From Chloroflexota bacterium (lineage in GTDB: Bacteria > Chloroflexota > Anaerolineae > B4-G1 > SLSP01), in contig JAKJAC010000012.1 of NCBI GenBank assembly GCA_022707705.1, positions 1 through 39,733 of the forward strand: a stretch of 39,733 nt of DNA. The letters run 5' to 3'. The notes beneath the pieces are model-generated. The model was not told the DNA's origin. It searched no databases and worked only from the letters and a program-made list of their open reading frames with translations. The translations under genes and the position numbers were made by a program. The number at the start of each line of letters is the position of its first letter. Positions within the stretch are counted from its first letter, which is position 1. Below are positions 5,343 to 32,204 of the stretch, in pieces.

Positions 5343-5483
5343 ATCTGTGTCTCCTCCTTGAAATCAACTACCGCACCACTTAGCAGATTCCGGTCCAAAT
5401 TTGCCCCCTTGCGATGGGAATCTGGACAATGCGACCACAATAGGGTAGCGTGTGAATCATTACCGGGCGATAAATAAGGCGCG

Positions 5484-6476: not shown

Positions 6477-6534
6477 GGCAGATCTCCTCAAAAATGTGTT
6501 TCAGGCTACAGCAAAAGCACCAGAGAGGCTGTAT

Positions 6535-7152: not shown

Positions 7153-7256
7153 GCGCTCGATTCTACCAAAGAATGATGCGGAGTCTCTATATGCTGGTTT
7201 TCCCAACGGCGCAACGCTTCCATGCGGTAAGAAACGCCGCACGGAGAATCCCTGCT

Positions 7257-7288
7257 AAAAAAACAGGGTCGGAAAACTCCCGACCCTG
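7257..7288 (-). terminator. Rho-independent terminator of tmRNA
   Basis: On the minus strand: CAGGGTCGG-gagtttt-CCGACCCTG followed by TTTTTTT, beginning 3 nt after the tmRNA 3' end. Confidence 0.8.
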
Positions 7289-7290
7289 AG

Positions 7291-7684
7291 TGGAGATGGC
7301 GGGAATCGAACCCGCGTCCGAAGAATTCTGCAACAAGCGTCTACGAGTGTAGTCGGCGTTTTCGTTCTTGTTCGGTGGGTCGCAGCCGACCGCGCCGCAT
7401 CCGAACCAGCCGATAGTCTTGACGCGCCTTATCGGCGTAAGGCGGGCTGCGCGCTGATTTTATTACACCTTACTCCGACATACCAGCGAACTGCCGGAGG
7501 GGCGTGACCGGATTCCCGGTCAGGTCGTGGGGTCAATCACCCGCTGCTTACGCAGCGACGGCGACCGGCGCCCAGCGGTTTGCCATAGGAGTGGCATTTG
7601 TTTTTTGCTCCTGGGTTTGCGGGAACGGAGCCTCCCCGACTCGCAGCCTGCGACAAACCTTCCCCGTCGAAACCTATCATCCCC
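7291..7684 (-). ncRNA. ssrA: tmRNA (transfer-messenger RNA)
   Basis: The 5' end GGGGAUGAUAGGUUUCGACGGGG (RC of 7662-7684) and the 3' end GGACGCGGGUUCGAUUCCCGCCAUCUCCA (RC of 7291-7319) form a tRNA-Ala-like acceptor stem with a G3:U wobble. The T-arm is GCGGG-UUCGAUU-CCCGC. The internal tag frame GCA AAC CGC UGG GCG CCG GUC GCC GUC GCU GCG UAA (RC of 7548-7583) encodes ANRWAPVAVAA*. The terminal CCA is not encoded. Confidence 0.9.
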
Positions 7685-7690
7685 GCACTT

Positions 7691-7699
7691 ATTATACCA
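7691..7699 (-). promoter_or_regulatory. Extended -10 promoter element (TGGTATAAT) for tmRNA
   Basis: The RC of 7691-7699 is TGGTATAAT. The hexamer ends 6 nt upstream of the tmRNA 5' G. No good -35 is present, which is consistent with an extended -10 promoter. Confidence 0.5.
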
Positions 7700-7800
7700 C
7701 AAAATGAGGAAAATCACTCAAAGAAAAGCCATTTGCATGATGATGGGCTTGCTTTTTTCCCAAAGTTGAAACGCACCCACCGCCACCACAAAGCCAGCTT

Positions 7801-8541
7801 TTAGGAGCCTGCATGATCATATCTGCCGGCGCGGATATGGCGGCGAATGGCTAACACTTCACGGAACATCCGGTAGGCATCGCGCAGAGGATGAATGCTG
7901 CCCCCTTTGCCATAATACCAGGGAATACCAACCTCGATGATAGGGGATCCCCAACGGCGCGCAATCGCCAGTACTTCGACATCGAAGGCAAAGCCATCAA
8001 CTTTCTGAACCGCAAAAATCCGCTGTCCCACCTCACGTCGGAATGCCTTGAAGCCACACTGCGTATCCTGAATCCCCGGCACTGCCAGAACCCGGACCAT
8101 GAGATTAAAAACCCGCCCCATAAGATGCCGGTAAAAAGGTTCATTGAAGCGCCGTGCGCCAGGGGCTTCACGGGAGCCGATGGCAATATCGTAATCTTTG
8201 CCGAGGCGCTCTGGATAAAACCTGGGTAATTCCTCGATGGGCATGGCAAGGTCCGCATCACAGATGAACACATAGCGTCCATCCGCCTCGAACATTCCTT
8301 TGCGGACTGCAGCGCCTTTTCCTTGAATGGGCTGGTCTATCACGCGCAGGCAAGAATGCTCAGCAGCCACTGCCAAAGCGATGGCGCCGGTCTCGTCACG
8401 GCTATTGTTATTCACCACGAGTACATTCAGCGACGCAGACGCCGCTTCCACAAAGGCGACCACGCGCCTCAGAGTTTCAGGCAGGCGGTGTGCTTCATTA
8501 TAAGCGGGGATTACAATGGTCATTAGCGGACTTCCGCCCAT
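7801..8541 (-). CDS. GT2 glycosyltransferase, polyprenyl/dolichyl-phosphate sugar synthase-like
   Basis: MTIVIPAYNEAHRLPETL ... VVNNNSRDETG ... ICDADL is a typical GT-A family 2 N-terminus with a DxD. Start chosen at ATG 8541, which has GGAG 6 nt upstream. The listed 8610 start would overlap the upstream gene. Confidence 0.8.
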   Translation of the reverse strand: MGGSPLMTIVIPAYNEAHRLPETLRRVVAFVEAASASLNVLVVNNNSRDETGAIALAVAAEHSCLRVIDQPIQGKGAAVRKGMFEADGRYVFICDADLAMPIEELPRFYPERLGKDYDIAIGSREAPGARRFNEPFYRHLMGRVFNLMVRVLAVPGIQDTQCGFKAFRREVGQRIFAVQKVDGFAFDVEVLAIARRWGSPIIEVGIPWYYGKGGSIHPLRDAYRMFREVLAIRRHIRAGRYDHAGS

Positions 8542-8594
8542 TTTGTGCTCCAACAATTTCTCCGGTATTAGCAATTCCATCCAGAACGGACTTT

Positions 8595-9389
8595 TTACAG
8601 AGGTTCCCACCCAACAATCTGCCGCTCTCGATAGTGCGCCAGATGTGAAAAACCGGCTTCCTTTGCCAGCAACCGAGCCTGCTCGAAATGTTGACCTACT
8701 CGTTCTGGTTTATGCGCATCTGAACCGAAGACCAGAATCTCGCCGCCCAGGGCGCGGTACCGGCGCAACACGTTTAACCCAGGACAAGGTTCTGCAAGCC
8801 CGCGGGACAGAGGTGAGGTGTTGATTTCCAGGCCTTTGCCGCGTGCGATGACCGATTCAAGGACAGCATCCACAACTCCCGCGTAGTCCTCGATGGGCAG
8901 GGTCTGTTGTAGCTGCGCCCACGAGTCGCGCCTAACCAAGTCAAAATGCGCCATAACGTCAAACTCGCCTTCACGCGCCAGAATCAGCAATTCCCGGAAG
9001 TATCGCTCGTAAGCTACTTCAATCCCATCATCAAAAGCTACCGGTAACCAACCCGGAATATTATCCGCCCAATGGGTTGAGCCAAGGACATAATCCCAGG
9101 GCCAGGCTGATAAAGCCGTGCGCACTTGCTCAGAGAAGAGGTGCGGGTTGCCGATTTCAATGCCGGCAAGCACCTCAAGCGTGCCGTTCCACTGCGCTTG
9201 AAGTGCGCGCAGCTCTGCGAAATAGGCTTCGAAATTCAGGAAACCCGTCGCTTCGTCTTCTGGAATCCATTCCAGGTGGTCTGTGAAAGCAAATCCCTGC
9301 AGCCCGGTGCGATGCGCAGCCTCGGCTATTGAGGCCATCGTCGAATAGGCATCACAGGAGTGATGGGAGTGGACATGATAATCGATCAT
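8595..9389 (-). CDS. PHP-domain phosphoesterase (HisJ-type histidinol-phosphatase family)
   Basis: N-terminal MIDYHVHSHHSCDA is the canonical PHP metal motif, and later His/Asp motifs follow (GSTHW, FGSDAH). ATG 9389 lies 1 nt after the upstream gene's TAG stop. Confidence 0.75.
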   Translation of the reverse strand: MIDYHVHSHHSCDAYSTMASIAEAAHRTGLQGFAFTDHLEWIPEDEATGFLNFEAYFAELRALQAQWNGTLEVLAGIEIGNPHLFSEQVRTALSAWPWDYVLGSTHWADNIPGWLPVAFDDGIEVAYERYFRELLILAREGEFDVMAHFDLVRRDSWAQLQQTLPIEDYAGVVDAVLESVIARGKGLEINTSPLSRGLAEPCPGLNVLRRYRALGGEILVFGSDAHKPERVGQHFEQARLLAKEAGFSHLAHYRERQIVGWEPL

Positions 9390-9390
9390 A

Positions 9391-10491
9391 CTATGCCATC
9401 CCACGCTGTTGTCGCATCCAGTCCTCTAAATCTAGATAAGCCTCTTCCAATGCCGGAAGCTCCTGCACCCGCGATAGTTTGATACCCAGTTGCCCCATCG
9501 GCATCGCCAGTAAACTGTATAACCGCTCAGAAGCTATCTGCATGCTTTCGGGGCGTCTCCCCAGTCGTTCAAAGGCAGAAAGCAACGCTGGCAATACCTG
9601 TGTCCACAAGTCTGCCAGAGATGGCTGCGGCATCAGCAAACTCACGTCCAGTACAGCCCCCTCCTGTGCATCCACCACCAACAGGGTATAGGGGAAGTAT
9701 GGCGGCGGGCTTCCCTCTTCGATTGGTACTGGCATCATCGCCAGATGCACTTGCACTTCAACATTCTTCAAGGGTAGCTTGTGCCGTAGGGCAGCAAGAT
9801 CCTGATCCGATATCTGACTCTCGCTGGCAACGACGGGGTACTGAGGAACGAAGACCTGTTGCTTGAAAACCCACTCTCCATCTTCGATAACACGTGACAA
9901 CAATGGTAGGGTAGTGGGAAGCGTATCCGCCTCCAACAACGGCGGAATTGAGATTTCGCCTTGCTGCTGAGCTTGAGTCACTATCAGAGCCTGTTCCAGC
10001 AACAGTGTTAGGAAACGCGCCTGTGGTCCATTGATGTACCAGGGAAGCCGTGCGGGCGTAAAGTTGCGGAAAAAGGGCCACAGTTTGCGTTCACGGATCC
10101 TCACTTTGGCTTCCTGCACAATCTGCCAATCTAGTGCAGTGAGCGTTTGGCGTGATTCAAAAGATGCTTGCAACTGCGGCGTTTCAAGTAACATCATGCC
10201 ATGCTCACGTTCCCCAAGAAAAGCGCTAGCATATTTCATCCCCCGCAGAGCTGTGAGGTAACATCCCAGGCCCACCTCACCGAGGTAGGTGATCAAAGCA
10301 TGATGTTCACGTATTTCACCGGTGATGGAGCAAAACCCCATCTCACCGGTCTCAGGATTCTGCACGGCGAACAGCAGTTCTTCGAACATCCAATTCCAGG
10401 GCATGGCTGCTTTGAAAGCCTCAGCCGCGCGGAACAGGCGTCGCCACTCCTCTGGGGTGATATGGGGTTCGGGTAAGTCAAATGTGGGCAT
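9391..10491 (-). CDS. Conserved-looking hypothetical protein (366 aa), function unknown
   Basis: Long ORF whose ATG has AAGGAG 7 nt upstream. It is packed tightly between neighbouring genes. I recognise no catalytic or binding motif. Confidence 0.6.
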   Translation of the reverse strand: MPTFDLPEPHITPEEWRRLFRAAEAFKAAMPWNWMFEELLFAVQNPETGEMGFCSITGEIREHHALITYLGEVGLGCYLTALRGMKYASAFLGEREHGMMLLETPQLQASFESRQTLTALDWQIVQEAKVRIRERKLWPFFRNFTPARLPWYINGPQARFLTLLLEQALIVTQAQQQGEISIPPLLEADTLPTTLPLLSRVIEDGEWVFKQQVFVPQYPVVASESQISDQDLAALRHKLPLKNVEVQVHLAMMPVPIEEGSPPPYFPYTLLVVDAQEGAVLDVSLLMPQPSLADLWTQVLPALLSAFERLGRRPESMQIASERLYSLLAMPMGQLGIKLSRVQELPALEEAYLDLEDWMRQQRGMA

Positions 10492-10559
10492 GCCAAATCT
10501 CCTTTCAATCAGGCTTCATAATAACGCAATCTGCTCGTCTATACGACATTGCGCCGCAC

Positions 10560-11516
10560 CTAAAGGATCTCCTCGGGTGCCTTGCAAAACAAATCGCCAG
10601 GAGCTTGCGGAGGCGTCAGGAAACGGAGTGCACCTGCTTCCAATCCAATGATCGCAGGAGTTTCGCCAAAGGGGTCGCCATCCAAATGTACCGCCACACG
10701 CGGGATGGTCTCTAGCTGTATCTGACGCGTGAGAACTTGAATCACAGCCGGATCATGGAGATGTCGTTGGCCAATCAGCATGTGCAGAAAATGACGCAAC
10801 ACATAACCGAGTCCAAGACCCTTGAAGATAAAGATGTCCAGCAAGCCATCATCCATGTAAGCGTGACGGGCGATGGTGAAAAAAGCCGCGTAGAGCTGAA
10901 TATTGCTGGCTACGACGAGCAAAGCTCGGGTATTGAAAGCGCGTCCTTCGACGGCAACCCGGGTGCGGAAGCCTTTGAACCAGGATGCCACCGAAAAAGC
11001 GGCAATGATGTAGGGCAGAGTGCGCAGTCGCTTGGCATATCGGGTCCGCGGTTCCAATTGCGCGGCAATCTCGGCATCTAGACCCGCACCAGCCCAGCAG
11101 ATAAAATAACGCCCGTTAATGACACCCGCATCCACTCGCTGCACACGGCTTTTCAGCAGACTCTCAGCGACCTCGCTGACCTGGTAGGGTGGAACCGGTG
11201 AGAGAATCGGCATGTGCATTTGATGCGCCAAAATATTCCCGGTGCCAACCGGCACAATGCCCAAAATGGTATTCGATCCGACCAGCCCATTGGTAGCCTC
11301 ATTGATCGTACCATCGCCGCCGGCAACCAGTACCAGATCTAGCCCATCATGCGTAGCCTGGCGCGAGAGCCACATAGCATCCCCAGATTTGTGTGTCTCG
11401 ACCAGTTCGACCTGCCAACCGTGGGCGCCCAGATCTTCCGCCAGGCGTTTAAGGATACGGGTCATATCCCAGGGACCCGCGGTGGGGTTATAAATTAATA
11501 GTGTTCGGAAAGCCAT
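10560..11516 (-). CDS. Diacylglycerol-kinase-family lipid kinase (YegS/BmrU-like)
   Basis: LIYNPTAGP near the N-terminus, VAGGDGTINE and PVGTGN motifs. Start taken as ATG 11516 (MAFRTLLIYNP). The listed start at 11570 is a TTG with no SD. Confidence 0.8.
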   Translation of the reverse strand: MAFRTLLIYNPTAGPWDMTRILKRLAEDLGAHGWQVELVETHKSGDAMWLSRQATHDGLDLVLVAGGDGTINEATNGLVGSNTILGIVPVGTGNILAHQMHMPILSPVPPYQVSEVAESLLKSRVQRVDAGVINGRYFICWAGAGLDAEIAAQLEPRTRYAKRLRTLPYIIAAFSVASWFKGFRTRVAVEGRAFNTRALLVVASNIQLYAAFFTIARHAYMDDGLLDIFIFKGLGLGYVLRHFLHMLIGQRHLHDPAVIQVLTRQIQLETIPRVAVHLDGDPFGETPAIIGLEAGALRFLTPPQAPGDLFCKAPEEIL

Positions 11517-11625
11517 AGGCAACGAAACTCGCTCTAGTCTTCCTGATTCGCTTAGGGACTTTGTATGCAATAGAATCTAGTGGGAGTATAACACAAGACA
11601 TGAGAGCAACAACTTGTGCCACAAA

Positions 11626-11648
11626 GGTAACTGTTCAGACTTCCACCA
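11626..11648 (+). repeat. Copy of GGTAACTGTTCAGAYTTCCA motif (see 32490-32510)
   Basis: ggtaactgttcagacttccacca matches 32490-32510 (ggtaactgttcagatttccag) at 19 of 21 positions. Weaker similarity extends about 15 nt upstream and into a downstream hairpin plus TCCGCTRGA. Confidence 0.8.
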
Positions 11649-11769
11649 CATGGCGAAAATCTCGGACTAAAGTCCGCTAGAGCGAGGGTCTCACGCTGAA
11701 GTAGGGTTTCAGCTGCTAACTTTCATGTCGGGGCAAAATGCCGAACGGGACCTTCAGGAGTGGTCGACT

Positions 11770-12549
11770 CTATAATGCAGGAAAGACCAGACTTGCTCCC
11801 CAGCCCGCGGCAAAGACCAGGGTGCTCAATGCCAACACCCACCAATCCAGATGCCGAAAGCGCAGTTCACGCCAGCTGGTGCGCTTTTGAGTGTAACCAA
11901 GCCCGCGCGCCGCCAGAGCCAGGGTGAGCTGATCGCTCAATTGCAGCGCGCCGATGATGATGGCAATCAGCACAGGTTGGTACTCCCGCGCCCGGCGGAG
12001 CAAGTTCCCCTCGGCAACCCATCCCCGCGAGGCTTGTGCTTCACGCACAGTAGTTGCCAGATTGCCGATTGCAGGCAGGAAACGGAGCGTGAGACTCAGA
12101 GTGAGACCCCAGGTGTAAGGTAATCCCAAACGCACGAAAGCCCGCACCAAGGCGCGCTGGTCTGTGGTGAAAAGCAATCCGCCGGTGAGAAAAGCCATCG
12201 CCAGCACACGCAGCGCCAGCAACATTGCACTGGATATCCCGCCCAAACTTAGGGTCAGTGGTCCCACTTGCGCCAGGATTCTTCCGGATGGTGAGAAAAG
12301 AGGCTGCAACAGCAGCATTAACACCACCAATAAACGCATTTGCTGCCACAGCCAACCTAGAGTGCGCCAACTGACCCCCGCTAAACGCAGTGTCAGCAAC
12401 AAGCTAGCCACAAAAATGGCTTGCGTAAGTGGGTGTGTCCAGCGAAAAGCCAGAACTAAGCCCAGTAACATCATCCAGAGTTTGACTCTTGGATCGCAGC
12501 GATGTAACCAGGAACGTCCCGGCACATAGAGATCGAGGGAAAAACTCAC
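11770..12549 (-). CDS. ecfT: ECF transporter transmembrane (T) component
   Basis: Polytopic protein with the N-terminal YVPGRSWLHRCDPRVKL motif typical of EcfT/CbiQ. GTG 12549 has GGGAGG 7 nt upstream and overlaps the ATPase stop (GTGA). Confidence 0.8.
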   Translation of the reverse strand: MSFSLDLYVPGRSWLHRCDPRVKLWMMLLGLVLAFRWTHPLTQAIFVASLLLTLRLAGVSWRTLGWLWQQMRLLVVLMLLLQPLFSPSGRILAQVGPLTLSLGGISSAMLLALRVLAMAFLTGGLLFTTDQRALVRAFVRLGLPYTWGLTLSLTLRFLPAIGNLATTVREAQASRGWVAEGNLLRRAREYQPVLIAIIIGALQLSDQLTLALAARGLGYTQKRTSWRELRFRHLDWWVLALSTLVFAAGWGASLVFPAL

Positions 12550-21026: not shown

Positions 21027-21404
21027 ATGGCAAGTCGGCGGTCGCGAACGGAACAGATGGTCGAGCGCTTGCGGGATTTGCAGATTAGCAGTCCCGATAT
21101 CGAAGCTGCAGCGATAGTGAGTGTGGATGGGTTGCCCATCGCCTCGTCACTGCCCCAAGGGGTCGAAGAAGACCGGGTCTCAGCCATGTCAGCCGCAATG
21201 CTCTCCCTTGGTGAGCGCATTGCGACCGAGTTGGGTCGGGGTATGCTCGATGAAGTATATGTCAAAGGTGAAAAGGGCTACGTCATCCTCCGCGCCGTGG
21301 GGGAAGAAGCCGTGCTTACCGTGCTGGCACGCCAGCAAGCCAAATTAGGCTTACTCTTCCTCGATATGCGCCGGGCAGCTGAAGAGCTGGCCGCCATCCT
21401 TTAA
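21027..21404 (+). CDS. Roadblock/LC7 (MglB-like) domain protein
   Basis: IEAAAIVSVDGLPIASSLP....DRVSAMSAAMLSLGERIA......EVYVKGEKGYVILRAVGEEAVLTVL is the canonical Roadblock/LC7 pattern. GGAGGAAA SD upstream. Confidence 0.85.
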   Translation: MASRRSRTEQMVERLRDLQISSPDIEAAAIVSVDGLPIASSLPQGVEEDRVSAMSAAMLSLGERIATELGRGMLDEVYVKGEKGYVILRAVGEEAVLTVLARQQAKLGLLFLDMRRAAEELAAIL

Positions 21405-21426
21405 TAACCCAGCAAGGAGGAATACA

Positions 21427-22068
21427 GTGGCTAACACTCCAGTACCCAGTAGTCTGTATTACCCTAATCGCTTTGCGCTGATTCTGCTTAAAGCACTGGA
21501 AGAAATCATGGGGCGCAACGGCTTGAATGCGGTGCTCAATATGGGTGGTCTGGCGCATTGGATTACCACACCACCTGCCGACAATATGGAGAAGAGTGAG
21601 TTTGACTTCGCCTACATGGCGGCACTCAACGAAGCCCTCGAGGAGATGTATGGACGGCGCGGCGGGCGAGGCTTGCAATTGCGACTGGGGCGTGTGCTTT
21701 TTGTTGAGGGCCTGGCGAATTTCGGCGCCCTGGTAGGCGCCAGCGACCTGGCGTTCAAGATTATGCCTTTACCCACCAAACTCAAGGCTGGCTTGCCGGC
21801 GGTCGCCAAAGTCTTCGATAGTTTGAGCGATCAGACCTCCTATGTGGTAGACCCAGGTGGCGACCATTACCTGTACCACATTGCGCGGTGTTCGATGTGT
21901 TGGGACCGCCATGTGGATCACCCGGTGTGTTTCATTGCTTCCGGTATTTTGGAGGAAGCGCTGCGCTGGGTTAGCAGTGGGCGCACATTCCGAGTAGATG
22001 AGATCAGCTGCATTGGGATGGGAGATCAAACCTGCTCTTACGCCATTTACAAAGAACCCATCGGTTAA
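21427..22068 (+). CDS. V4R (4-vinyl reductase-type) small-molecule-binding domain protein
   Basis: The C-terminal CSMCWDRHVDHPVCFIASGILEEALRWVSSGRTFRVDEISCIGMGDQTCSYAI matches the Cys-spaced V4R signature. The GTG start has an AAGGAGGAA SD. Confidence 0.75.
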   Translation: MANTPVPSSLYYPNRFALILLKALEEIMGRNGLNAVLNMGGLAHWITTPPADNMEKSEFDFAYMAALNEALEEMYGRRGGRGLQLRLGRVLFVEGLANFGALVGASDLAFKIMPLPTKLKAGLPAVAKVFDSLSDQTSYVVDPGGDHYLYHIARCSMCWDRHVDHPVCFIASGILEEALRWVSSGRTFRVDEISCIGMGDQTCSYAIYKEPIG

Positions 22069-22080
22069 GCGGTTCTCTTA

Positions 22081-22968
22081 GTGAGTGTTATGGACTCTGT
22101 CGAGACTCTGCAACACATTCTGGTAGTGGAAGATGATCCTAACACAGCAGAGATGCTGACGGCGTATTTTGCATCTCTGGGGTATCAGGTTACACACGCA
22201 GCCTGGGGTCAAGATGCTCTAACGCTAGCTGCACAAAATGTACCGGATTTGGTAGTTCTGGATATTCATCTGCCGGATATTGACGGTTATGAGGTTTGTT
22301 CGCGCCTACGTTCACAGCGCCGAACGATGAATACTCCCATTATCTTCCTGACTGAGCGCAATGAGCGCCGGGATAGGCTAACCGGCTTAGAGCTTGGTGC
22401 CGTAGACTACCTGACTAAGCCCTTTGATGTGCAAGAGATTCGCTATCGTGTGCGCAATATTCTGCGTCGCAGTACCTCCAACGCGCTATTGCACCCGCTC
22501 ACCGGGCTTCCGACCGCCGACCTGATTGAGGCTCAGGTGCAGCGACTTCGACTACAGTCGGAGCTAATTCTGGTAGGCGTGCGCATCAACGGCATGAGCG
22601 CCTTCAGTGATGCTTATGGCTTCGTCAGTCACGATGATATTCTGAGAGCCGTTGCCCTGATTCTGCGCAATACGATGACAGAGATGGTGGTGGAAGATGC
22701 TTTTGTGGGGCATCTTCACGCTTACGATTTCGTATTGATTGTTCCAGAGTCGCAACAGTATCTGCTTATGGGACGTCTGTACCAACGGCTACAAGAAGCG
22801 ATTTCATTCTTCTATCCCTATCAAGACTGGGAAAGCGGGCGTCTGGAAGATGGTACGCCATTGCCCAAAATCGAGTTCGATGTGCGCATGATACAGTCCG
22901 CGCAGGTTCCGCCGAATTGCGATCTGGAGCTTTTACGACAAGCGCTATTTAGTACACCCAAGAATTAG
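22081..22968 (+). CDS. Response regulator: intact REC domain + degenerate GGDEF-like output domain
   Basis: REC carries VVEDD, the phospho-acceptor in VVLDIHLPD (D codon 22261-22263), FLTE and LTKPF. The C-terminal domain begins HPLTGLP like a GGDEF domain. The GGDEF position reads HAYDF (22717-22731) and the upstream metal-binding D.D reads RING. ATG 22090 is an alternative start. Confidence 0.8.
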   Translation: MSVMDSVETLQHILVVEDDPNTAEMLTAYFASLGYQVTHAAWGQDALTLAAQNVPDLVVLDIHLPDIDGYEVCSRLRSQRRTMNTPIIFLTERNERRDRLTGLELGAVDYLTKPFDVQEIRYRVRNILRRSTSNALLHPLTGLPTADLIEAQVQRLRLQSELILVGVRINGMSAFSDAYGFVSHDDILRAVALILRNTMTEMVVEDAFVGHLHAYDFVLIVPESQQYLLMGRLYQRLQEAISFFYPYQDWESGRLEDGTPLPKIEFDVRMIQSAQVPPNCDLELLRQALFSTPKN

Positions 22969-22983
22969 ATATGGGGGCTGATT

Positions 22984-23022
22984 CAACAGATCCAGGGATG
23001 TCTCCTGGGTCTGTTGTTTTTT
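22984..23022 (+). terminator. Rho-independent terminator of the Roadblock-V4R-RR operon
   Basis: CAACAGATCCAGG-gatgtct-CCTGGGTCTGTTG followed by TTTTTT. Confidence 0.8.
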
Positions 23023-23120: not shown

Positions 23121-26100
23121 ATGGCAAAAATACGAGTCTGGATTACACAACACGGATTGCCGATTCTTTTGTTACTGCTGGCGCCTTTGCTGCTCTTTGC
23201 ACCGGTGGTCATAGGAGATGCTACCCTTCTCCCCGCCGATGCGCTTATGCTTTTTGAACCCTTCCGCTCGACGGCGCAGGAATTGATCCCACCGCACAAT
23301 CCGCTGCTCGCCGACCTGGTGTTGCAAAACTACCCCTGGCAACGTCTCATCGTCAACGCACTCAAACAAGGCGAAATCCCCTGGTGGGACCCGTTTACCT
23401 TCTCCGGGCATCCTTTTCTAGCAAACGGTCAAGCCATGGGGTTTTACCCGCTCCGCGTGATTTTCCACATCTTCCCCCTACCACGAGCTTATGGTATCTT
23501 TATCACCCTGCAATTGGGATTGGCGGGTGTATGGATGTACGTGCTCGCCCGCGTTTTGCATGCCAATCGACTGGGGGCAGTACTGGCAGGTTTGACCTTC
23601 GAGCTCAGTGGTTTTCTGGTGGTTTCCGCCGTTCATCCCATGATTATTGCCACCGCCTCGTGGCTACCGCTGTTACTGGCGCTCGCAGAACTCGGCATAC
23701 GTCGTGCTCCTTTCTTGCGTTTTGGGCGCAGCACCTTGCCCTGGGCGCTGTTGGGAGCGGCGGCGCTGCTGATGCAATTGCTCGCAGGTCATGCAGAGAC
23801 CGCCTACTTTGCTCTATTGGTGCTGGTAGCTTTTGTAGCCTACCGATTGCTCTACCGGTTGCTGACGCTCCCCAAATCGGAATGGCGCACCGAAGTGCTC
23901 ACCCCGGCGCTCAGTCTTCTCCTCATGGGGGTGTTGGGCATCGGACTGGGTGCGCTACAGTATCTGCCACTCTACGAAAGTGTGAGCGCCAGTTTCCGCC
24001 AGGGCGCAGTTGCCTTGCAAGAAGTCTTGGGCTGGGCTTATCCCAAACGGCGCATGCTGACTTTTCTGATTCCGAACTTTTTTGGCAACCCCACTCACCG
24101 GGCGTTTCAGGACATTTTCACCGGTAAATGGATTCAAGCCACAGTGAATGCATTTGGCAGCCCTGTCAGCGCCTTCGAGTGGGGCATCAAGAATTATGTA
24201 GAAGGCGGCGCGTACATGGGCTTGCTGCCGCTGGCATTGGCACTGCTGGCGGTACTGGATGCGTTCCGTGGAACTGCCAGCGCCAGGGCCATTGGGCATC
24301 GCTGCATCGAACGACTACGCCTGTTTTTCCGGCAACCCTATACCCCATTTTTCACCCTTCTGGCGCTGTTTGCTCTGGGTTGCATCTTCGGTACACCAGT
24401 GTATGCCATCGTCTATGCATTGCCCCTGCTCAGTCAATCTCATAGCCCCTTCCGCTGGGTCTTCCCGCTCACGGTGGCAGTGGCAGCGCTCGCAAGTCAG
24501 GGGGCAACGGCGGTAGCCCGCTCGCGTCGCTCTGCAACGCAAACAGGACAACCGGCTCAAAGCGAACCAGTTTTCTCGCGCGTGGTGCGCTGGTTAGGAT
24601 GGGGGATTCTGGGCAGCGGGGTCGCGTTGCTGGCAGGCTTGTGGCTCTCACGGTTGGCTTTCCCTGGCATCGAGCCGTGGGTCGAGCGGCTCTTCTGGGC
24701 GTTGGCAAAAGCGCCGGATACCTTCCCCGATGCGCGTACATTCTACGCTTACGAATTCCGTTGGATACAGCAAGCCGCGCTGTTGCTCATCGTCACTGGC
24801 ACAGTGTTGCGTGTGTCACGCTGCCCTATCTTCCTGCCGCAAAGGCTAAAACGGCGCCCGATATGGGAATCATTAGCCCTTGTGGTGCTCATAGTAGACT
24901 TGCTCAGCTTCGGTTGGGGCTTCAACCCGCAGGCTGATTCTGCCCCATTGTCCGTCACTCCACCCGTTGTCGAATTCCTCCGCCAGGATCAGGGCGTCTG
25001 GCGCCTCTCGAGTTTCGACCCTCATGGAAGTCGCGTACTCGATTCCAACACGGCGATGTACTTTGATTTTCAGGATGTGCGGGGTTATGATAGCACCTTT
25101 GCTACACAATATGTCCGTTACATGAATTGGATCGAACCACAAGGGCAATTGCTCTACAACCGCATTGCCCCATTTACCCAGTTCTCCAGTCTCGATAGCC
25201 CGTTAACGGACTTACTCAATGTCAAGTACATCCTTACCGATGTCGAAATTCCGCTGCCCAAGTATCAGCTGGTCTACGAAGAACCGGCCCTGCGTGTCTA
25301 CGAGAATCTCACAGTCATGTCCCGTGCCTTCACTTTACCGCAAAGCGCCACCATCGTAGTCCCTGATGCAGAGGCGGTGGGCACTACGCTTCAAACCTAC
25401 GATCCGCGTTTCTACGTCATCATCGAGGCGGTGCAAGAGGCGTGGAGCGGCAGCGCTCCCACACCCGGCGCTTGGCCCCGCCCCTTCGCGGCAGGGGAAC
25501 CGCAGGCACAAGTCATCACTGCCTATGGACTCAATCAGGTCGTGGTGGATGCCACTGTGGCGGAAGACGCATGGCTTGTCCTCGGCGATGCTTTCTTTCC
25601 TGGTTGGAAAGCCTTTGTGCGCCCCCAAGGCACAGGTGAGGATAGTGAGACCGAGATTCCCATTGCGCGGGTGGCAGGCAATTTCCGGGGGGTGCGCCTC
25701 ACTCCCGGCGCATGGACGGTGCGCTTTCGCTACACCCCTAACAGTGTGAAATTCGGGGTCTTTATCTCTTTCTTGTCGGGAATGATTGCGCTTTTCCTCG
25801 CAGTGGCGTGGGGCTGGAGGCGACTCTACCGTGAGAATACCCAGGCTTCCACAACCCAACGGTTGGCGAAGAACAGTATTGTTCCCATTGCACTCAATCT
25901 CTTCAACCGGATGGTGGATTTCGCTTTTGCTGCATTGATGCTGCGTATACTGGGTCCGGATAATGCCGGGCAATACTACTATGCCGGTAGCATCTTCATG
26001 TGGTTCGATATCATCACCAACTTCGGACTCAACACCTATCTCACCCGCGAAGTATCACGCTATCAAGAGCAAGCGCGACGTTACCTGGTCAATACCTCGC

Positions 26101-27341
26101 TGTTGCGACTGGGGTTGGCTGTGCTCGGCGTGCCCCTGCTGGTGGGCTTCATTGCCGTGCGGCAGACACTCGTGGCAGCGCTCACCGTGCCGGCAGCGCA
26201 ATCGGCGCTCCTGGCGCTGGTGTTGCTCTATGTGGGCTTGATCCCCAATTCCATCGCCACAGGGCTTTCGGCGCTTTTCTATGCGCACGAGAAAGCCGAG
26301 TTTCCTGCAGCTGTAACAACCATCTCCACGTTGCTCAAAGTTGGCTTGGGTACAGCCGTGCTGCTTGGCGGGTTGGGTATCGTAGGGCTGGCGGCTTCAG
26401 CCATCGCCGTTAACATCATCACGCTGGTGATTCTGGGGGCGCTGGCATGGCGGCAGATTCCCGCGCTAAAGACTGCTGCGCCCTCTCGCATCGCGTTGCG
26501 TGCAGCCACAGAGCGCACCCTGCGCCGGAAGATGCTCAGTGAGTCTTGGCCCCTCATGGTCAATCACCTGCTGGCAACGCTGTTCTTCAAGATTGATGTG
26601 CCGCTCATGGAAGCGATTCTGGGGAATGAAGCCCTGGGCCTCTATAGCACGGGTTACAAATACCTCGATGCACTCAACGTGATTCCCTCTATGTTTACCA
26701 TGGCGCTCTTCCCCGTCATCTCGCGGAAAGCGGTGGAGGATCGCGCCGGTTTTGTGCGCTTCTTCCAACTGGGTGTGAAAATCCTCACGCTGTTAGTGCT
26801 ACCGGCAGCCATTATCGCCACGCTGGGAGCGCGGGAGCTGGTGCTGCTGCTGGGCGGACCGGAATACCTGCCCGGCGGAATGATTGCACTGCAACTGATG
26901 GCATGGTCTATGGTCATCGGTTGGACCAACAGCCTTACCCAATACGTGCTGATTGCTCTGAACCAACAACGCTATCTCATGCGTGCCTATATGCTGGCGC
27001 TAAGCTTCAATCTGATTGCCAATTTGGTGTTGATGCCGCGTTTCGGTTATCAGGCTTCAGCGTTATTACATACAGCAGCAGAGCTGATGTTGTTCATCCC
27101 CTTCACCATTCGCCTGTACCAGCAGGTTGGGCGTCTTAACTGGTGGGGAATGTTGGGTAAGCCATTGATTGCCGCAGTCTGCGCCGCGCCGGTCGCCGCA
27201 GTGCTCTTCCCATTGAACCGCCTGGCAGCATTGGTGGGGGCGCTCCTCATTTATGGGGTGGTCAGCTGGCGCTTGCGAATCTTTGATGCCGAAGAGCGCC
27301 AGGTATTAGCGCCGGTATTTGGGAGCAGAAAGGGAAGCTGA
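23121..27341 (+). CDS. Fusion membrane protein: YfhO-family GT-C glycosyltransferase (aa 1 to ~890) + MOP/Wzx-type polysaccharide flippase (aa ~910-1406)
   Basis: Single 1406-aa ORF. The N-terminus has the YfhO-style LQNYPWQ...GEIPWWDPFTFSGHPFLANGQAMGFYP. It continues through many TMs and a large loop to a terminal TM after FRYTPNSVKFGVFISF. From about nt 25855, LAKNSIVPIALNLFNRMVDFAFAALMLRILGPDNAGQYYYA plus about 12 more TMs is a typical Wzx/MOP flippase. Confidence 0.8.
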   Translation: MAKIRVWITQHGLPILLLLLAPLLLFAPVVIGDATLLPADALMLFEPFRSTAQELIPPHNPLLADLVLQNYPWQRLIVNALKQGEIPWWDPFTFSGHPFLANGQAMGFYPLRVIFHIFPLPRAYGIFITLQLGLAGVWMYVLARVLHANRLGAVLAGLTFELSGFLVVSAVHPMIIATASWLPLLLALAELGIRRAPFLRFGRSTLPWALLGAAALLMQLLAGHAETAYFALLVLVAFVAYRLLYRLLTLPKSEWRTEVLTPALSLLLMGVLGIGLGALQYLPLYESVSASFRQGAVALQEVLGWAYPKRRMLTFLIPNFFGNPTHRAFQDIFTGKWIQATVNAFGSPVSAFEWGIKNYVEGGAYMGLLPLALALLAVLDAFRGTASARAIGHRCIERLRLFFRQPYTPFFTLLALFALGCIFGTPVYAIVYALPLLSQSHSPFRWVFPLTVAVAALASQGATAVARSRRSATQTGQPAQSEPVFSRVVRWLGWGILGSGVALLAGLWLSRLAFPGIEPWVERLFWALAKAPDTFPDARTFYAYEFRWIQQAALLLIVTGTVLRVSRCPIFLPQRLKRRPIWESLALVVLIVDLLSFGWGFNPQADSAPLSVTPPVVEFLRQDQGVWRLSSFDPHGSRVLDSNTAMYFDFQDVRGYDSTFATQYVRYMNWIEPQGQLLYNRIAPFTQFSSLDSPLTDLLNVKYILTDVEIPLPKYQLVYEEPALRVYENLTVMSRAFTLPQSATIVVPDAEAVGTTLQTYDPRFYVIIEAVQEAWSGSAPTPGAWPRPFAAGEPQAQVITAYGLNQVVVDATVAEDAWLVLGDAFFPGWKAFVRPQGTGEDSETEIPIARVAGNFRGVRLTPGAWTVRFRYTPNSVKFGVFISFLSGMIALFLAVAWGWRRLYRENTQASTTQRLAKNSIVPIALNLFNRMVDFAFAALMLRILGPDNAGQYYYAGSIFMWFDIITNFGLNTYLTREVSRYQEQARRYLVNTSLLRLGLAVLGVPLLVGFIAVRQTLVAALTVPAAQSALLALVLLYVGLIPNSIATGLSALFYAHEKAEFPAAVTTISTLLKVGLGTAVLLGGLGIVGLAASAIAVNIITLVILGALAWRQIPALKTAAPSRIALRAATERTLRRKMLSESWPLMVNHLLATLFFKIDVPLMEAILGNEALGLYSTGYKYLDALNVIPSMFTMALFPVISRKAVEDRAGFVRFFQLGVKILTLLVLPAAIIATLGARELVLLLGGPEYLPGGMIALQLMAWSMVIGWTNSLTQYVLIALNQQRYLMRAYMLALSFNLIANLVLMPRFGYQASALLHTAAELMLFIPFTIRLYQQVGRLNWWGMLGKPLIAAVCAAPVAAVLFPLNRLAALVGALLIYGVVSWRLRIFDAEERQVLAPVFGSRKGS

Positions 27342-27522: not shown

Positions 27523-28734
27523 ATGGAGTTATCACAACTGGAACAGATGGTGCACTGGCTTGACCAGGAGCGCAAGAAAGACAAGGCGCTCATAGCCACC
27601 CTGCAAGAGCGGAGTGAACAACAGGCGCTGACCATCGAAGCTCAGGCGCGCGACCTGGAAGCGCTGCTTCGAGAATTGGGGCAATTAGGGGCAGATATTC
27701 GCCGAACAGATGATTATCCTGCCATGATCGAGAAAACGCATCGCGATCTCACCGCTGCGATTGAGGAACTAAAAGCCATACAACGCAGAGAGAAAATGGA
27801 ATCCGAACGCTTGCGTCGCGCCGAGATCGAAGCTCTGTCACAAGAGGTCATCACCGTAGACGAACGCTATCGTCCCACCCTGCGTTACCCTGAGATGCTC
27901 GAGGCGCGCGCCGTGGGAGAGCAACGCTTGCAGACCCAATTACAGCAGCTCACCGGTAGCGTAGCGGACCTCACCAAGCGCACCGACGACCGCTTACAAG
28001 CGGTCGTGTATTTGGAAGAACAGCGCCGCGCCGATACGCGCCGTGTGGCGGCTGTGGAAGGCGATTTACCGCCGTTACGCAAGAGCGTGGACGAATTCAA
28101 TGCCAAATTGCTGCGCCTCGAAGATAGCATCCGTAAGTTGCCGGCGCGCGTGGAAGAGGCGATTCAAATTGCTAAATCCTATGATCCCAAAATCGAGGAA
28201 TTGCGGGTGGCAGACTTCCAACGTGAACAGCGTGTACGGCAGTATCTCGACCAGGCTGCCCAGGTGCAAGCAGAGGTTGCCCGTCTGGTGGAGCAAACCC
28301 AGAAATACGCTCTGCTCTTTAACCAGAACAAGCAAGCGTTGGATGCTCTCGAATCCTTCCGGGTGCGATTGGAAAAACGCCAGAATGAAATCGCCGAGAT
28401 GCAGCGGCTCAATGAGGAACGCCTCAAACGCGAATGGGAAGAATGGCAATCTGCCTTTGCACGCGACTGGCAGAAACGCCTGGTGACCGAGGAAGACCGC
28501 TGGCGCCGCGAGGATTTGATGGATCAACGGTTCACCGAGCATTTTGTCCAACTCGACGAGACCTCAAAGCTGTACTTCGACGAGCTGGCGGCACTCTGGG
28601 AAGAGTTGCGCCAATTGGCGGATCGCTGGGGAAATCTGGTGCGCGATAAGGTGCTCGCCGATCAGGAGATACCAGCACAACGTCTCAAAGCCCTGCGGCG
28701 CTTCGCTGAAGAAAAACGCAAAGACCTGCTATAA
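27523..28734 (+). CDS. Charged coiled-coil protein (403 aa), function unknown
   Basis: AAGGAG SD. E/R/K/Q/L-rich sequence with heptad-like periodicity throughout. No TM segment and no enzymatic motif. Confidence 0.7.
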   Translation: MELSQLEQMVHWLDQERKKDKALIATLQERSEQQALTIEAQARDLEALLRELGQLGADIRRTDDYPAMIEKTHRDLTAAIEELKAIQRREKMESERLRRAEIEALSQEVITVDERYRPTLRYPEMLEARAVGEQRLQTQLQQLTGSVADLTKRTDDRLQAVVYLEEQRRADTRRVAAVEGDLPPLRKSVDEFNAKLLRLEDSIRKLPARVEEAIQIAKSYDPKIEELRVADFQREQRVRQYLDQAAQVQAEVARLVEQTQKYALLFNQNKQALDALESFRVRLEKRQNEIAEMQRLNEERLKREWEEWQSAFARDWQKRLVTEEDRWRREDLMDQRFTEHFVQLDETSKLYFDELAALWEELRQLADRWGNLVRDKVLADQEIPAQRLKALRRFAEEKRKDLL

Positions 28735-28843: not shown

Positions 28844-30421
28844 CTATGCTGTATAGCGCCACTCGCCGCCAACCATCACACGTTGCACGCGCGTCTCCAA
28901 TAACGCCTCCGGGGGCGCCGAGAAGATATCACGGTCCAATACGACCAGGTCCGCAAAATAGCCTGGAAGTAGGCGCCCTTGGCAATGCTCCTGCCCAATT
29001 GCGTAAGCCGCACCCCAGGTATATGCCTTGAGTGCGTCGGTCAAGGTGAGCCGTTCCTGGGGCTGCCAACCCTCAGGACCAGGGGAGCCATCACGTTCAT
29101 GACGACGGGTGACAGCCGCATACAGCCCCAATAGCGGATCGAAAGATTCAATAGGTGCATCGGAACCAAAAGCAAGGCGCGCGCCGGTTTTCAGCAACGA
29201 TTGCCAGGCATAGCTCAGGGTGCAGCGTGCGCCCCAATAGCGCTCTGCCATCGCCCAATCATGGGGCGCGTGAACGGGTTGCATCGAAGCTACCACATCC
29301 AGCTGCGCCAACCGAGGTAAATCCTCCCGGCTCAACAGCTGGACGTGTTCAATGCGGTGACGTAACGTTGGGTTGAGCGGTTGCACCTCGTCCAACACGT
29401 CCAGCACCAGGCGGTTAGCCCGGTCGCCAATCGCGTGAATCGCCAGCGCCAGCCCACCGGCTACAGCCCGCCGGGCGATAGCGCGCAATGCATCAGGTTC
29501 AAGCGTCAACAGACCTGTATTCTCCGGTTCTTCTGCGTAAGCCGCCAGCATCGCCCCAGTACGCGCCCCTAATGCGCCATCCACAAAGAGCTTTAGCCCG
29601 CAGAAGCGCAGCCATTCGTCACCATAGCCGCTACGCAATCCCACTTCCAACAGACCGTCGAGCGCCTCCAGGCGTACATATTTGCCCACTCGCAGCTGGA
29701 GCGCCCCCTCTTGCCGTAAAAGCTGCAGCGCCGAGAAGGCAGGTCCACCATCCACATCGTGCACACCCGTGAGACCTTTCTGCAACAGCCGAGGTTGCGC
29801 TGCACGGATCGCAGCGGCAACTTGTGCTACCGTAGGCTCGGGAATGACAGACTCCACAGCATCAACCGCATATTCAAAGAGCATGCCATCCAGGGCGCCG
29901 TTAGCCGTTCTTCCAAAACGACCCTGCGGCGGATCGGGTGCAACCACATCCAGACCTGCCAGGCGCAGCGCCGCTGAATTGGCGACCGCTGCATGAGCGT
30001 TCTTGGCAATCAGCAATACCGGGTGATGTGGGGCGACCCTATCCAGTTCGGCTGCCGTAGGGAAGCGCGTGTCAACCCAAAGAGTCTGGTCCCAACCACG
30101 TCCTCGAATCCAGCCGCCCGGCGGCGCTGCCGTTACCGCGTCTGCCACGACTGCAAGCAATGCTTCTCGCGATAGGTCGCGGAGTTCCAGATCAGCCAGG
30201 CTGAGTGCATACCACATCAGGTGGATGTGCGCATCCACCAATCCGGGAAGAACTACTGCAGCCTGCAGGTTTTCTACGCGAGTCTGAGGGGCTGTTGCCC
30301 ACGCCAGTGCTGCCTGCCCGATAGCGACGATTTGTGAATCCACCAACGCTACCGCATCTGTCCATGGTTGTTGCCGGTCGCCGGTGTAAAAGCGTCCGTT
30401 TTTGAGTAGCCGAATCCTCAT
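28844..30421 (-). CDS. Metal-dependent amidohydrolase (YtcJ-like, Amidohydro_3)
   Basis: VLPGLVDAHIHL metal motif near the N-terminus, then later HAIGD and FGSDAP motifs. Start set at ATG 30421 (MRIRLLKNGRFYTG), directly after the upstream gene's stop. Confidence 0.8.
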   Translation of the reverse strand: MRIRLLKNGRFYTGDRQQPWTDAVALVDSQIVAIGQAALAWATAPQTRVENLQAAVVLPGLVDAHIHLMWYALSLADLELRDLSREALLAVVADAVTAAPPGGWIRGRGWDQTLWVDTRFPTAAELDRVAPHHPVLLIAKNAHAAVANSAALRLAGLDVVAPDPPQGRFGRTANGALDGMLFEYAVDAVESVIPEPTVAQVAAAIRAAQPRLLQKGLTGVHDVDGGPAFSALQLLRQEGALQLRVGKYVRLEALDGLLEVGLRSGYGDEWLRFCGLKLFVDGALGARTGAMLAAYAEEPENTGLLTLEPDALRAIARRAVAGGLALAIHAIGDRANRLVLDVLDEVQPLNPTLRHRIEHVQLLSREDLPRLAQLDVVASMQPVHAPHDWAMAERYWGARCTLSYAWQSLLKTGARLAFGSDAPIESFDPLLGLYAAVTRRHERDGSPGPEGWQPQERLTLTDALKAYTWGAAYAIGQEHCQGRLLPGYFADLVVLDRDIFSAPPEALLETRVQRVMVGGEWRYTA

Positions 30422-30423
30422 AT

Positions 30424-30981
30424 TTACAATCCCAAAATCTGCGCCAACCAGGCGATACCGTAATATCCGCCCCAAGCGAAGACAATCGCCTTGATAGTTT
30501 TTCCAGCCCAGGCAGACAGATAGAACTTCCACACAGGGAATCCTGTGGCGCCGCCGGCAATACCTGCCAGATCAAAGAGAGGCATAGGCACAACACCCAT
30601 TAAGAAAACGGTAAGGACTCCATTCCGGCGCATCCAGCCTTCGATCGTTGGATAAACTCGCCAGTGATTTGCGATATCCTCAACCGCATATCCGGCAAGG
30701 TAGCCCCAAAGTTCCCCCAATGAATCGCCGAATCCCGCGCATAATCCCACAAACCAGGGCGTCAGCACCGACCCCATGGTAAAGGTGAAGGCTAGGTGGG
30801 GAATGGGGAGAACTACCGTCGTGCTTCCCACAAAAGCCATCAGGAAAACACCCAGATAGCCAAGTTCACGAAATTGGGCGATGCTGAGACGTTCACGGAA
30901 GACAATGACTAGAATGGTGACAATGATGAAGAAACCCACCAGGAAAGCTCGCAGAGCTTTGATCCACTTTGTTTTGTGCAT
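30424..30981 (-). CDS. VTT-domain (DedA/YqaA-like) membrane protein
   Basis: 185-aa polytopic protein with a glycine-rich re-entrant-like segment GFGDSLGELWGYLAGY. Size and pattern resemble the YqaA/DedA family. This assignment is tentative. Confidence 0.6.
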   Translation of the reverse strand: MHKTKWIKALRAFLVGFFIIVTILVIVFRERLSIAQFRELGYLGVFLMAFVGSTTVVLPIPHLAFTFTMGSVLTPWFVGLCAGFGDSLGELWGYLAGYAVEDIANHWRVYPTIEGWMRRNGVLTVFLMGVVPMPLFDLAGIAGGATGFPVWKFYLSAWAGKTIKAIVFAWGGYYGIAWLAQILGL

Positions 30982-30985
30982 TTGG

Positions 30986-31138
30986 TTAGCGCCCTGTGTC
31001 TATCCGGGTAAAGATGCGTCCAAACGAGATCATACCAGCCTTGCCAAAGTGCTGAGAGATGACATCACAACTGATTATTTCATACATGGCTACTTTCGCT
31101 TCTCGGACAGGGTTTTTGTTCGGCAGAGTCATCGCCAT
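30986..31138 (-). CDS. Possible small protein (50 aa), unknown
   Basis: The ORF ends 4 nt before the VTT-gene ATG, an operon-like junction. Weak GAGAG SD. No recognisable motif. Confidence 0.3.
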   Translation of the reverse strand: MAMTLPNKNPVREAKVAMYEIISCDVISQHFGKAGMISFGRIFTRIDTGR

Positions 31139-31211
31139 AGGGTTACTCTCGTCACGATGAGTTCCAAATAGCAAACATGGGAACACACATTCAAGAGGGG
31201 GACTCTGCCTG

Positions 31212-32204
31212 TCAGGGTTGGGAAGGAAGACGCTGTGCTAGCAACGCCAGCTTAGGTTCTACCTCATACCAGCTAATCTCTGAAAGCCCCAATTTCTGAC
31301 GCAATGCCTCGCGGTCCATGTCGCTAAGAAAATCCCGTACCGCGCAAGTCCAACGCAACATCTCAAACGAGAGGCGTTCGAGACCTGCATCAGCGCCCAC
31401 GCGCGTGAGGATATACTCCAAATTGCGCGGCGTCCAGGGAAAGAGATACTGCCGCGGATGATAAGCCTGAAGATACTCCTGCAACACGGGGGGCCACCAA
31501 TCCGGCAACAGAATGCGCCGTTCCTTATGTTGGCGACTGGGTTGATTATAGCGAATCCATAGCGCAGGGCGCGCGGGGTTGGTCAGGTCAATGTGATTGG
31601 GAACAATCTTGACACATTCGCCCTTCTTAACGCCGGTGTGAAGTAACAACGTAATCAAGGTATAGGGTCGGGGGTCAGCTGGCTGTCCGGCGCTTCCCGC
31701 ACGCAGATGTTGGGCGACTTCGAGTACGGCGCGGCTCTGCGCTTCGGTTAGAAAATCCGGTAGAGGGGGTGAAACGGTGCGATGAATCAGTGGAGCAGCC
31801 GGGTCACGCGTCAACGTGCCAATCTCCGTCAACCAGCCGAAAAAGACTTTCAAGCTGGTAATTCGACGCTCAAGCGTTTTGGGACTGCACGCAATCCCCC
31901 GGGAGTCGGTCATCCAGGTAAGGAAGGCGCTGAGGTTAGCAGTAGCGATATGTCCCACCGCGATGCCTGGACCAAGGTATTCGGAGAGTAGCTGCAAATC
32001 AAGGCGGAATGCCTGGCGCGTATTCGCCGTGAAGCCACGCTGCTCCATATAATGTTCAAAGGCGCCGAGTGCCTTGTTGAAAGCCGATCCGGCATCAAGG
32101 TCAGGTTTGGGGGCAGGTTTGGGCGAGGGCGCAGGAGCATCTGTAGTCCCGAAAAGTGGCAACTGCGCCGCAAAACCCTGTTCGTGCTCCGTGTCTACCA
32201 TCAC
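31212..32204 (-). CDS. Tyrosine-recombinase/integrase-like protein with apparently degenerate catalytic residues
   Basis: SAM-like N-domain (TLERRITSLKVFFGWL) and a core-domain box I LLLHTGVKKGE, with K where the catalytic R is expected. Box II reads FEMLRWTCAV. The C-terminus is LGLSEISWYEV. It sits at the edge of the repeat-rich region and the GC-rich block. Confidence 0.7.
   Translation of the reverse strand: MMVDTEHEQGFAAQLPLFGTTDAPAPSPKPAPKPDLDAGSAFNKALGAFEHYMEQRGFTANTRQAFRLDLQLLSEYLGPGIAVGHIATANLSAFLTWMTDSRGIACSPKTLERRITSLKVFFGWLTEIGTLTRDPAAPLIHRTVSPPLPDFLTEAQSRAVLEVAQHLRAGSAGQPADPRPYTLITLLLHTGVKKGECVKIVPNHIDLTNPARPALWIRYNQPSRQHKERRILLPDWWPPVLQEYLQAYHPRQYLFPWTPRNLEYILTRVGADAGLERLSFEMLRWTCAVRDFLSDMDREALRQKLGLSEISWYEVEPKLALLAQRLPSQP

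Follow-up and report, generated by a model that had tools for sequence, protein, structure and literature searches.

A conserved gene of Chloroflexota encodes a YfhO-type GT-C glycosyltransferase and a MOP-superfamily flippase in one polypeptide

We analysed a gene that joins two polytopic membrane proteins in a 39,733-nt stretch of a Chloroflexota metagenome-assembled genome (MAG) from the class Anaerolineae (GenBank assembly GCA_022707705.1, contig JAKJAC010000012.1, positions 1 to 39,733; the whole stretch is called the window hereafter). The gene, located at 23121..27341 on the + strand, encodes a YfhO-type GT-C glycosyltransferase and a flippase of the MOP superfamily within a single polypeptide of 1406 amino acids (aa), and this fusion is conserved across Chloroflexota. 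An earlier reading of the window, made from its letters alone (the sequence-only reading), had proposed such a fusion, and its core claim is supported by domain profiles and fold comparisons, by a coherent membrane topology, and by the conservation of the fusion throughout the phylum. On balance, we favor the view that two of the three partners of a three-component (multi-component transmembrane) glycosylation system are naturally joined in this gene, which would reduce the pathway to two polypeptides.

Two membrane proteins in one open reading frame

The open reading frame (ORF) is uninterrupted, as the sequence-only reading had stated: it runs from an ATG to a stop codon with no internal stop across the 1406 codons, and the G+C content around the junction is even (0.55-0.58), without a compositional break. 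Both Pfam domains lie in the same polypeptide and both scored above their gathering thresholds. In the N-terminal half, YfhO (PF09586) matched in three stretches with 42.6 bits against a threshold of 28.5, and the more distant fused members gave strong, unmarked YfhO matches. In the C-terminal half, Polysacc_synt (PF01943; threshold 28.2) covered aa 915-1202 and profile positions 1-272 of 274, and Polysacc_synt_3 (PF13440) covered aa 940-1250 with 60.3 bits. The PF01943 score of 110.2 bits contradicts the possibility, raised together with the first proposal, that this half is not a MOP protein.

When searched against NCBIfam, the fusion protein presented sub-threshold matches only: Wzx_EPS (49.6 bits; cut-off 800), SpoVB (28.6 bits; cut-off 372), and PgfM2, a streptococcal YfhO-type enzyme. 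Neither Pfam nor NCBIfam gave a MurJ match for the window protein. It is a member of both superfamilies, the YfhO GT-C enzymes and the MOP transporters, and of no named equivalog.

Sequence searches of Protein Data Bank (PDB) chains with both halves gave no match, even with the E limit raised to 10 and 1. We therefore modelled the halves for fold comparison, and the structural matches come from the fold search only. The halves were modelled separately with AlphaFold2 (AF2), using an alignment of 47 homologs, as residues 1-905 and 891-1406. The model of residues 1-905 (pLDDT 88, pTM 0.90) retrieved AftD (6w98, E 3e-7) and AglB (3wak, E 1e-4) with Foldseek, followed by EmbC, yeast STT3, and DPY19. 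All these matches are GT-C enzymes with probabilities of 0.77-1.00, and their low global TM-scores (0.2-0.3) are expected because multi-domain membrane proteins differ in size. Thus, the N-terminal half is predicted to adopt a GT-C fold with a polytopic N-terminal membrane module.

The model of residues 891-1406 (pLDDT 91.5, pTM 0.88) retrieved WzxE (9g9n, E 6.5e-9, target TM-score 0.79-0.80) and MurJ (7wax, query TM-score up to 0.77), and then many MATE transporters, consistent with a two-lobed MOP fold of 12-14 transmembrane (TM) helices. WzxE, the lipid III flippase, and MurJ, the lipid II flippase, are the best structural matches of this half (TM-scores 0.64-0.80), but they share only 11-18% sequence identity with it, are free-standing, and carry pyrophosphate-linked substrates, and neither appeared as a sequence-level PDB match. 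The predicted structures agree in fold with the GT-C and MOP/Wzx assignments that had been proposed for the two halves.

We assigned the topology by hand, combining model helices and hydropathy. The GT-C half (aa 1-899; 23121..25817, + strand) presents 14 TM helices, with both its N and C termini in the cytoplasm. In its short loops, lysine plus arginine residues amount to 26 in 110 cytoplasmic residues and 4 in 51 external ones. Helix TM14 (aa 878-899; 25752..25817; residues 874-902 in the model) is the terminal helix of the YfhO body and returns the chain to the cytoplasm, in agreement with the terminal TM helix placed at about nt 25800 from the sequence alone. With 14 TM helices and positive-inside loops, residue 900 onward is cytoplasmic. 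The flippase half (aa 915-1406; 25863..27338, + strand) has about 14 TM helices, and its profile match starts at aa 915 (nt 25863), close to the start at about nt 25855 given before. Since both ends of the GT-C half are cytoplasmic, the flippase follows the linker of about 15 residues in the orientation that is normal for it, N-in like free MOP proteins, and both halves are correctly oriented in this hand-made assignment.

The linker itself (aa 900-914, RRLYRENTQASTTQR; 25818..25862, + strand) is cytoplasmic and arginine-rich. It is nearly gap-free in relatives from 100% down to 33% identity, with single gaps of 1-2 columns in two sequences. Stand-alone relatives of the GT-C half stop 5-12 residues past TM14. 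Besides, the two halves are conserved alike in related loci (48-89% for the N-terminal half and 42-90% for the C-terminal half). We argue from the fixed length of the linker and the similar conservation of the halves that the linkage itself is under selection.

On the outer face, two regions of the GT-C half stand out. The first extracytoplasmic loop (aa 32-121; 23214..23483, + strand) contains D40 (nt 23238-23240) and D65 (nt 23313-23315), which, like N60, N70, and W73, do not vary among 48 fused homologs and are also retained in the 33%-identical fused members and in the stand-alone relatives. D40 and D65, two acidic residues that do not make up a contiguous DxD, are candidate catalytic residues. 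Between TM13 and TM14 lies a large extracytoplasmic beta-rich domain of 276 residues (aa 602-877; 24924..25751, + strand), predicted by AF2 to consist mostly of strands with a pLDDT of about 90.

Spread of the fusion among Chloroflexota

We searched for relatives of the fusion in clustered protein databases, in GTDB, and in metagenomes, and the fusion proved to be widespread, as far as the survey reached. The clustered protein database retrieved at least 120 full-length representatives of 1360-1520 aa with 50-98% identity, nearly all with both Pfam domains and all from Anaerolineae or Chloroflexota MAGs. When the database searches were combined, more than 200 full-length cluster representatives (1300-1520 aa) shared the architecture. 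The only names given to these proteins in public databases are 'oligosaccharide flippase family protein' and 'O-antigen/teichoic acid export membrane protein'. They pass over the enzyme half, and a widespread family is mislabelled by current annotation.

The GTDB scan used one genome per species and found a relative of the fusion in at least 303 species, from which the best 80 loci were taken for ORF-level analysis. These 80 loci all belonged to Anaerolineae, Anaerolineales, Thermoflexia, or unclassified Chloroflexota MAGs. Both halves were encoded in one ORF in all 78 related loci with enough sequence, and none of the 80 had the halves split into adjoining YfhO and MOP genes.

A HMMER search with the GT-C half reached further and found 1255 representatives (E<1e-30). 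Of the best 150, 46 were full-length fusions (at least 1250 aa; the longest, 1478 aa), down to 33% identity, and these included a Dehalococcoidia MAG and other Chloroflexota. Complete stand-alone GT-C forms were few: P0121 (on three independent contigs), P0133, and P0154. None of the three had a MOP gene beside it, and a metagenome scan seeded with P0121 retrieved only more fused loci and no split pair. In a rough neighbor-joining tree without bootstrap, the stand-alone forms were scattered singly among the fused ones, which suggests that the fusion is old and has been lost occasionally.

One of these stand-alone relatives has a different neighbor. In the P0133 contig (JGI sample 3300042731, genes at 2574-7414), the YfhO-like protein has 889 aa and is followed 9 bp on by a gene for a 720-aa protein with Wzy_C and TPR domains, which hints at other partnerships of this GT-C subfamily.

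Proposed pathway and competing explanations

The logic of three-component systems, in which a GT-A enzyme, a flippase, and a GT-C enzyme act in turn, has been reviewed together with a Streptococcus pyogenes variant that uses a soluble GT-A enzyme, the Wzx-type flippase GacK, and the GT-C enzyme GacL (PMC8035078). In the known systems the flippase and the GT-C enzyme are separate proteins, whereas the Chloroflexota protein is one polypeptide in 78 of 78 loci. We read it as part of such a system because of its GT-C and MOP folds, its topology, the conservation of the fusion, and the recurrence of a DPMS-like GT2 glycosyltransferase as its neighbor.

In 42 of 73 loci, a gene for this GT2 of 245 aa immediately precedes the fusion gene, and it often overlaps the start codon of the latter. 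No hydrophobic TM segment was found in it. Its best solved relative is the Dol-P-Man synthase of Pyrococcus furiosus (5mlz, E 2e-26, over the whole catalytic domain), and then ArnC. The GT2-fusion pair occurs again in the Dehalococcoidia MAG (51-52% identity for the GT2 and 38% for the fusion), where the three regulatory genes found upstream in Anaerolineae (described below) are absent. Thus, the conserved core is the GT2 plus the fusion.

In the pathway that we propose, a cytoplasmic, TM-less GT2 of the DPMS/ArnC/AglJ type would use a nucleotide sugar to charge polyprenyl phosphate with a monosaccharide; for the genome studied here, this donor-making enzyme would be encoded elsewhere. The C-terminal MOP domain would then flip the polyprenyl-phosphate sugar to the outer leaflet. 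The YfhO-type GT-C domain, tethered to TM1 of the flippase by the fixed linker of about 15 residues, would move the sugar through D40 and D65 of its first external loop from C55-P-sugar to an extracytoplasmic acceptor of the envelope, with polysaccharides, proteins, and lipids as candidates. We infer a monophosphate-linked monosaccharide as the donor and a hand-over of substrate from one domain to the other, so that the fusion would couple flipping to transfer.

One close likeness is the system that adds the GlcNAc (N-acetylglucosamine) side chain to the group A carbohydrate of S. pyogenes, where the soluble GT-A enzyme GacI makes C55-P-sugar, the flippase GacK is of Wzx type rather than GtrA type, and the GT-C enzyme GacL transfers the sugar outside (PMC8035078). 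There, however, the components are separate proteins, GacL is listed with a PMT_2 domain and not with YfhO, and a GacJ-like helper takes part; in Chloroflexota a single polypeptide combines the flippase with the GT-C enzyme, without an evident membrane helper. The CsbB/GtcA/YfhO systems, which add GlcNAc to teichoic acids in Bacillus subtilis, Staphylococcus aureus, and Listeria monocytogenes, share the three-component logic, the YfhO Pfam family of the GT-C enzyme, and a GT2 gene next to the GT-C gene (PMC8035078, PMC7389260), but their flippase GtcA is a separate, small GtrA-family protein with four TM helices, CsbB is membrane-anchored, and the acceptors are teichoic acids. In the O-antigen pentofuranose system of Citrobacter youngae, the MOP-superfamily transporter ORF14, a MATE-family flippase in the same role, is assigned to flipping a polyprenyl-monophosphate sugar that feeds a GT-C enzyme (PMC11127046). 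It differs in having separate proteins, a GT136 GT-C enzyme, and a donor chemistry from phosphoribosyl pyrophosphate (PRPP) via a polyprenyl-phosphoribose synthase, in a Gram-negative host.

The sequence-only reading had presented the use of a MOP rather than a GtrA-type flippase as distinctive. The MOP identity stands, but GacK and the Citrobacter MATE protein are precedents for it in three-component systems. Since MOP flippases already occur in such systems, only the covalent fusion is new, and we found no description of a YfhO-flippase fusion in the literature searched. The flippase step is the least proven step of three-component glycosylation systems, and a conserved MOP-GT-C fusion provides independent genetic evidence that both partners act on the same lipid-linked sugar. 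Being a single chain, the fusion also lends itself to structural studies of the way in which the flipped donor reaches the GT-C active site, and it would mark a conserved envelope-glycosylation function in Chloroflexota.

Several points weigh against this pathway. The GT2 does not adjoin the fusion in our window nor in 31 of the 73 loci, and no trace of it is left in the 152-bp spacer that precedes the fusion of the window, although a relative with 80% identity (L045) has retained the GT2 in this position. The GT2 that the window does contain (7801..8610, - strand; PF00535, 94 bits) is a polyprenyl-phosphate sugar synthase by type, with ArnC, Dol-P hexose transferase, and AglJ as its best NCBIfam matches, all below their cut-offs. 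It had been named as the candidate synthase, and a GT2 of this class is indeed present, 14.5 kb from the fusion; but with 27-30% identity to the fusion-linked GT2 of relatives it is a distant paralog and not an ortholog. Its link to the fusion is unproven, and the 245-aa DPMS-like enzyme of the relatives is the true partner. Besides, the YfhO score of the window protein is modest, at 42.6 bits. Wzx-type flippases classically carry pyrophosphate-linked oligosaccharides. The models describe each half on its own. Finally, the sources are all uncultured MAGs, the pathway is drawn from sequences and predicted structures, and the choice of substrate goes beyond what sequence alone decides.

A further-reaching version of this pathway is possible, although we consider it rather doubtful: the fusion and the TM-less DPMS-like GT2 may form a self-contained two-polypeptide machine, in which the lipid-linked sugar would pass from the lateral gate of the flippase to the GT-C active site, bypassing the membrane pool, and which would serve a core, phylum-wide envelope function of Chloroflexota on a conserved acceptor. 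If true, it would be the first natural 'Rosetta-stone' evidence for MOP proteins as flippases serving GT-C enzymes.

Among the competing explanations, a Wzx-type en-bloc pathway is an unlikely one. In it, the MOP half would flip a polyprenyl-pyrophosphate-linked oligosaccharide and the GT-C half would act as an oligosaccharyltransferase, ligase, or polymerase toward a protein or polymer. Polysacc_synt and the WzxE fold as the best matches of the C-terminal half would fit this pathway, as would the high rank of two oligosaccharyltransferases, AglB and STT3, in the fold search with the N-terminal half, and the Wzy_C/TPR protein that follows P0133. However, neither the window nor the surveyed loci showed a phosphoglycosyltransferase, Wzy, or Wzz gene close to the fusion, and the recurrent neighbor is a synthase of monophosphate-linked sugars. 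The coiled-coil protein encoded downstream of the fusion in many loci has no hydrophobic or TM segment, which rules it out as a Wzz-like co-polymerase.

We give a similarly low probability to a processive polymerase, in which the GT-C half would build an external homopolymer from the flipped polyprenyl-phosphate sugar, like the mycobacterial Emb, Aft, and Mpt enzymes, instead of decorating a polymer that is already there. The arabinofuranosyltransferase AftD is the best structural match and EmbC is also listed, but at the low global TM-scores mentioned above. The gene is a conserved core gene in stable synteny, outside variable glycan islands, as would suit such a polymer. On the other hand, the characterized enzymes of the YfhO family attach sugars singly to teichoic acids (PMC8035078). 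Decoration and polymerization are not separated by sequence.

It is quite improbable that the two halves have unrelated jobs, with the MOP half flipping, for example, the cell's lipid II or polysaccharides in general and the fusion having no mechanistic meaning. Some homologs have weak precomputed MurJ (PF03023) matches, and MurJ structures match the C-terminal half as well as WzxE does; but profile searches with the window protein returned no MurJ, the linker has a fixed length, and the verified stand-alone relatives have no neighboring MOP gene. That the fusion persists down to 33% identity is a further argument for selection acting on the linkage. An assembly or frameshift artefact that joined two adjacent genes has practically no probability left, since we found nothing in its favor and the survey refutes it: a single ORF spans both halves in 78 of 78 independent loci, which come from different studies and were built with different assemblers, and the architecture recurs in more than 200 full-length database representatives.

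Genomic neighborhood

In Anaerolineae, the gene order is Roadblock/LC7, V4R, response regulator, GT2 (in part of the loci), fusion, and a 403-aa coiled-coil protein (also in part of them). The window presents the first three as a tight block at 21027..22968 (+ strand) with gaps of 12-22 bp, and Pfam identifies the third product as a receiver (REC) domain plus a degenerate GGDEF domain. No GGDEF motif was found in this response regulator, and the degenerate motif rules it out as an active diguanylate cyclase. No GTPase partner was found near the block. The triple lies upstream of the fusion in 48 of 55 Anaerolineae loci and is absent in L091-L093. The Roadblock-V4R pair is tandemly duplicated in two loci (L061 and L063), and in another one (L082) only the V4R gene is duplicated in this way.

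Between the response-regulator gene and the fusion, a hairpin scan located a strong terminator-like hairpin at 22984..23022 (+ strand), with a 14-bp stem (7 GC pairs) and a T6 run. Its sequence is kept 3' of the response-regulator gene in three relatives (L005, L006, and L045). Since the hairpin is conserved after the response regulator, the regulatory genes and the fusion are probably separate transcripts in this clade. Pfam and the ORFs bore out that the fusion follows the Roadblock-V4R-response regulator genes and precedes a coiled-coil protein gene, as first described from the sequence. The hint of regulation drawn from that placement fared less well: the neighbors are as described, but the triple is kept only within Anaerolineae and the hairpin separates it from the fusion. 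A regulatory link between the triple and the fusion is speculative.

Downstream, the coiled-coil protein is encoded at 27523..28734 (+ strand). It is soluble and all-helical, without any Pfam match and with only weak SMC-like coiled-coil similarity. Its gene follows the fusion in 38 of 63 loci, and the protein has exactly 403 aa in most relatives. Beyond it, genes for an Amidohydro_3 protein, a VTT/DedA-type membrane protein, and a XerC-like integrase (30424-32204 and 28844-30532, both on the - strand) follow the fusion in an unchanged order in many loci of Anaerolineae. Such conservation points to stable core-genome synteny and not to a mobile island.

A different setting was observed in L093, a distant Chloroflexota MAG, where a fusion with 33% identity lies within a glycan cluster (3560-11772). 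The order of this cluster is a RmlD-like reductase, a 321-aa GT2, a second GT-C-like protein (DUF2142/PMT_2), a 109-aa protein, the fusion, and a DUF5656 protein.

At the other end of the window (42-5342, - strand), we observed a gene for a 1766-aa protein that consists largely of FG-GAP and FG-GAP_3 repeats (13 stretches, 338 bits), which is probably a large surface or secreted protein.

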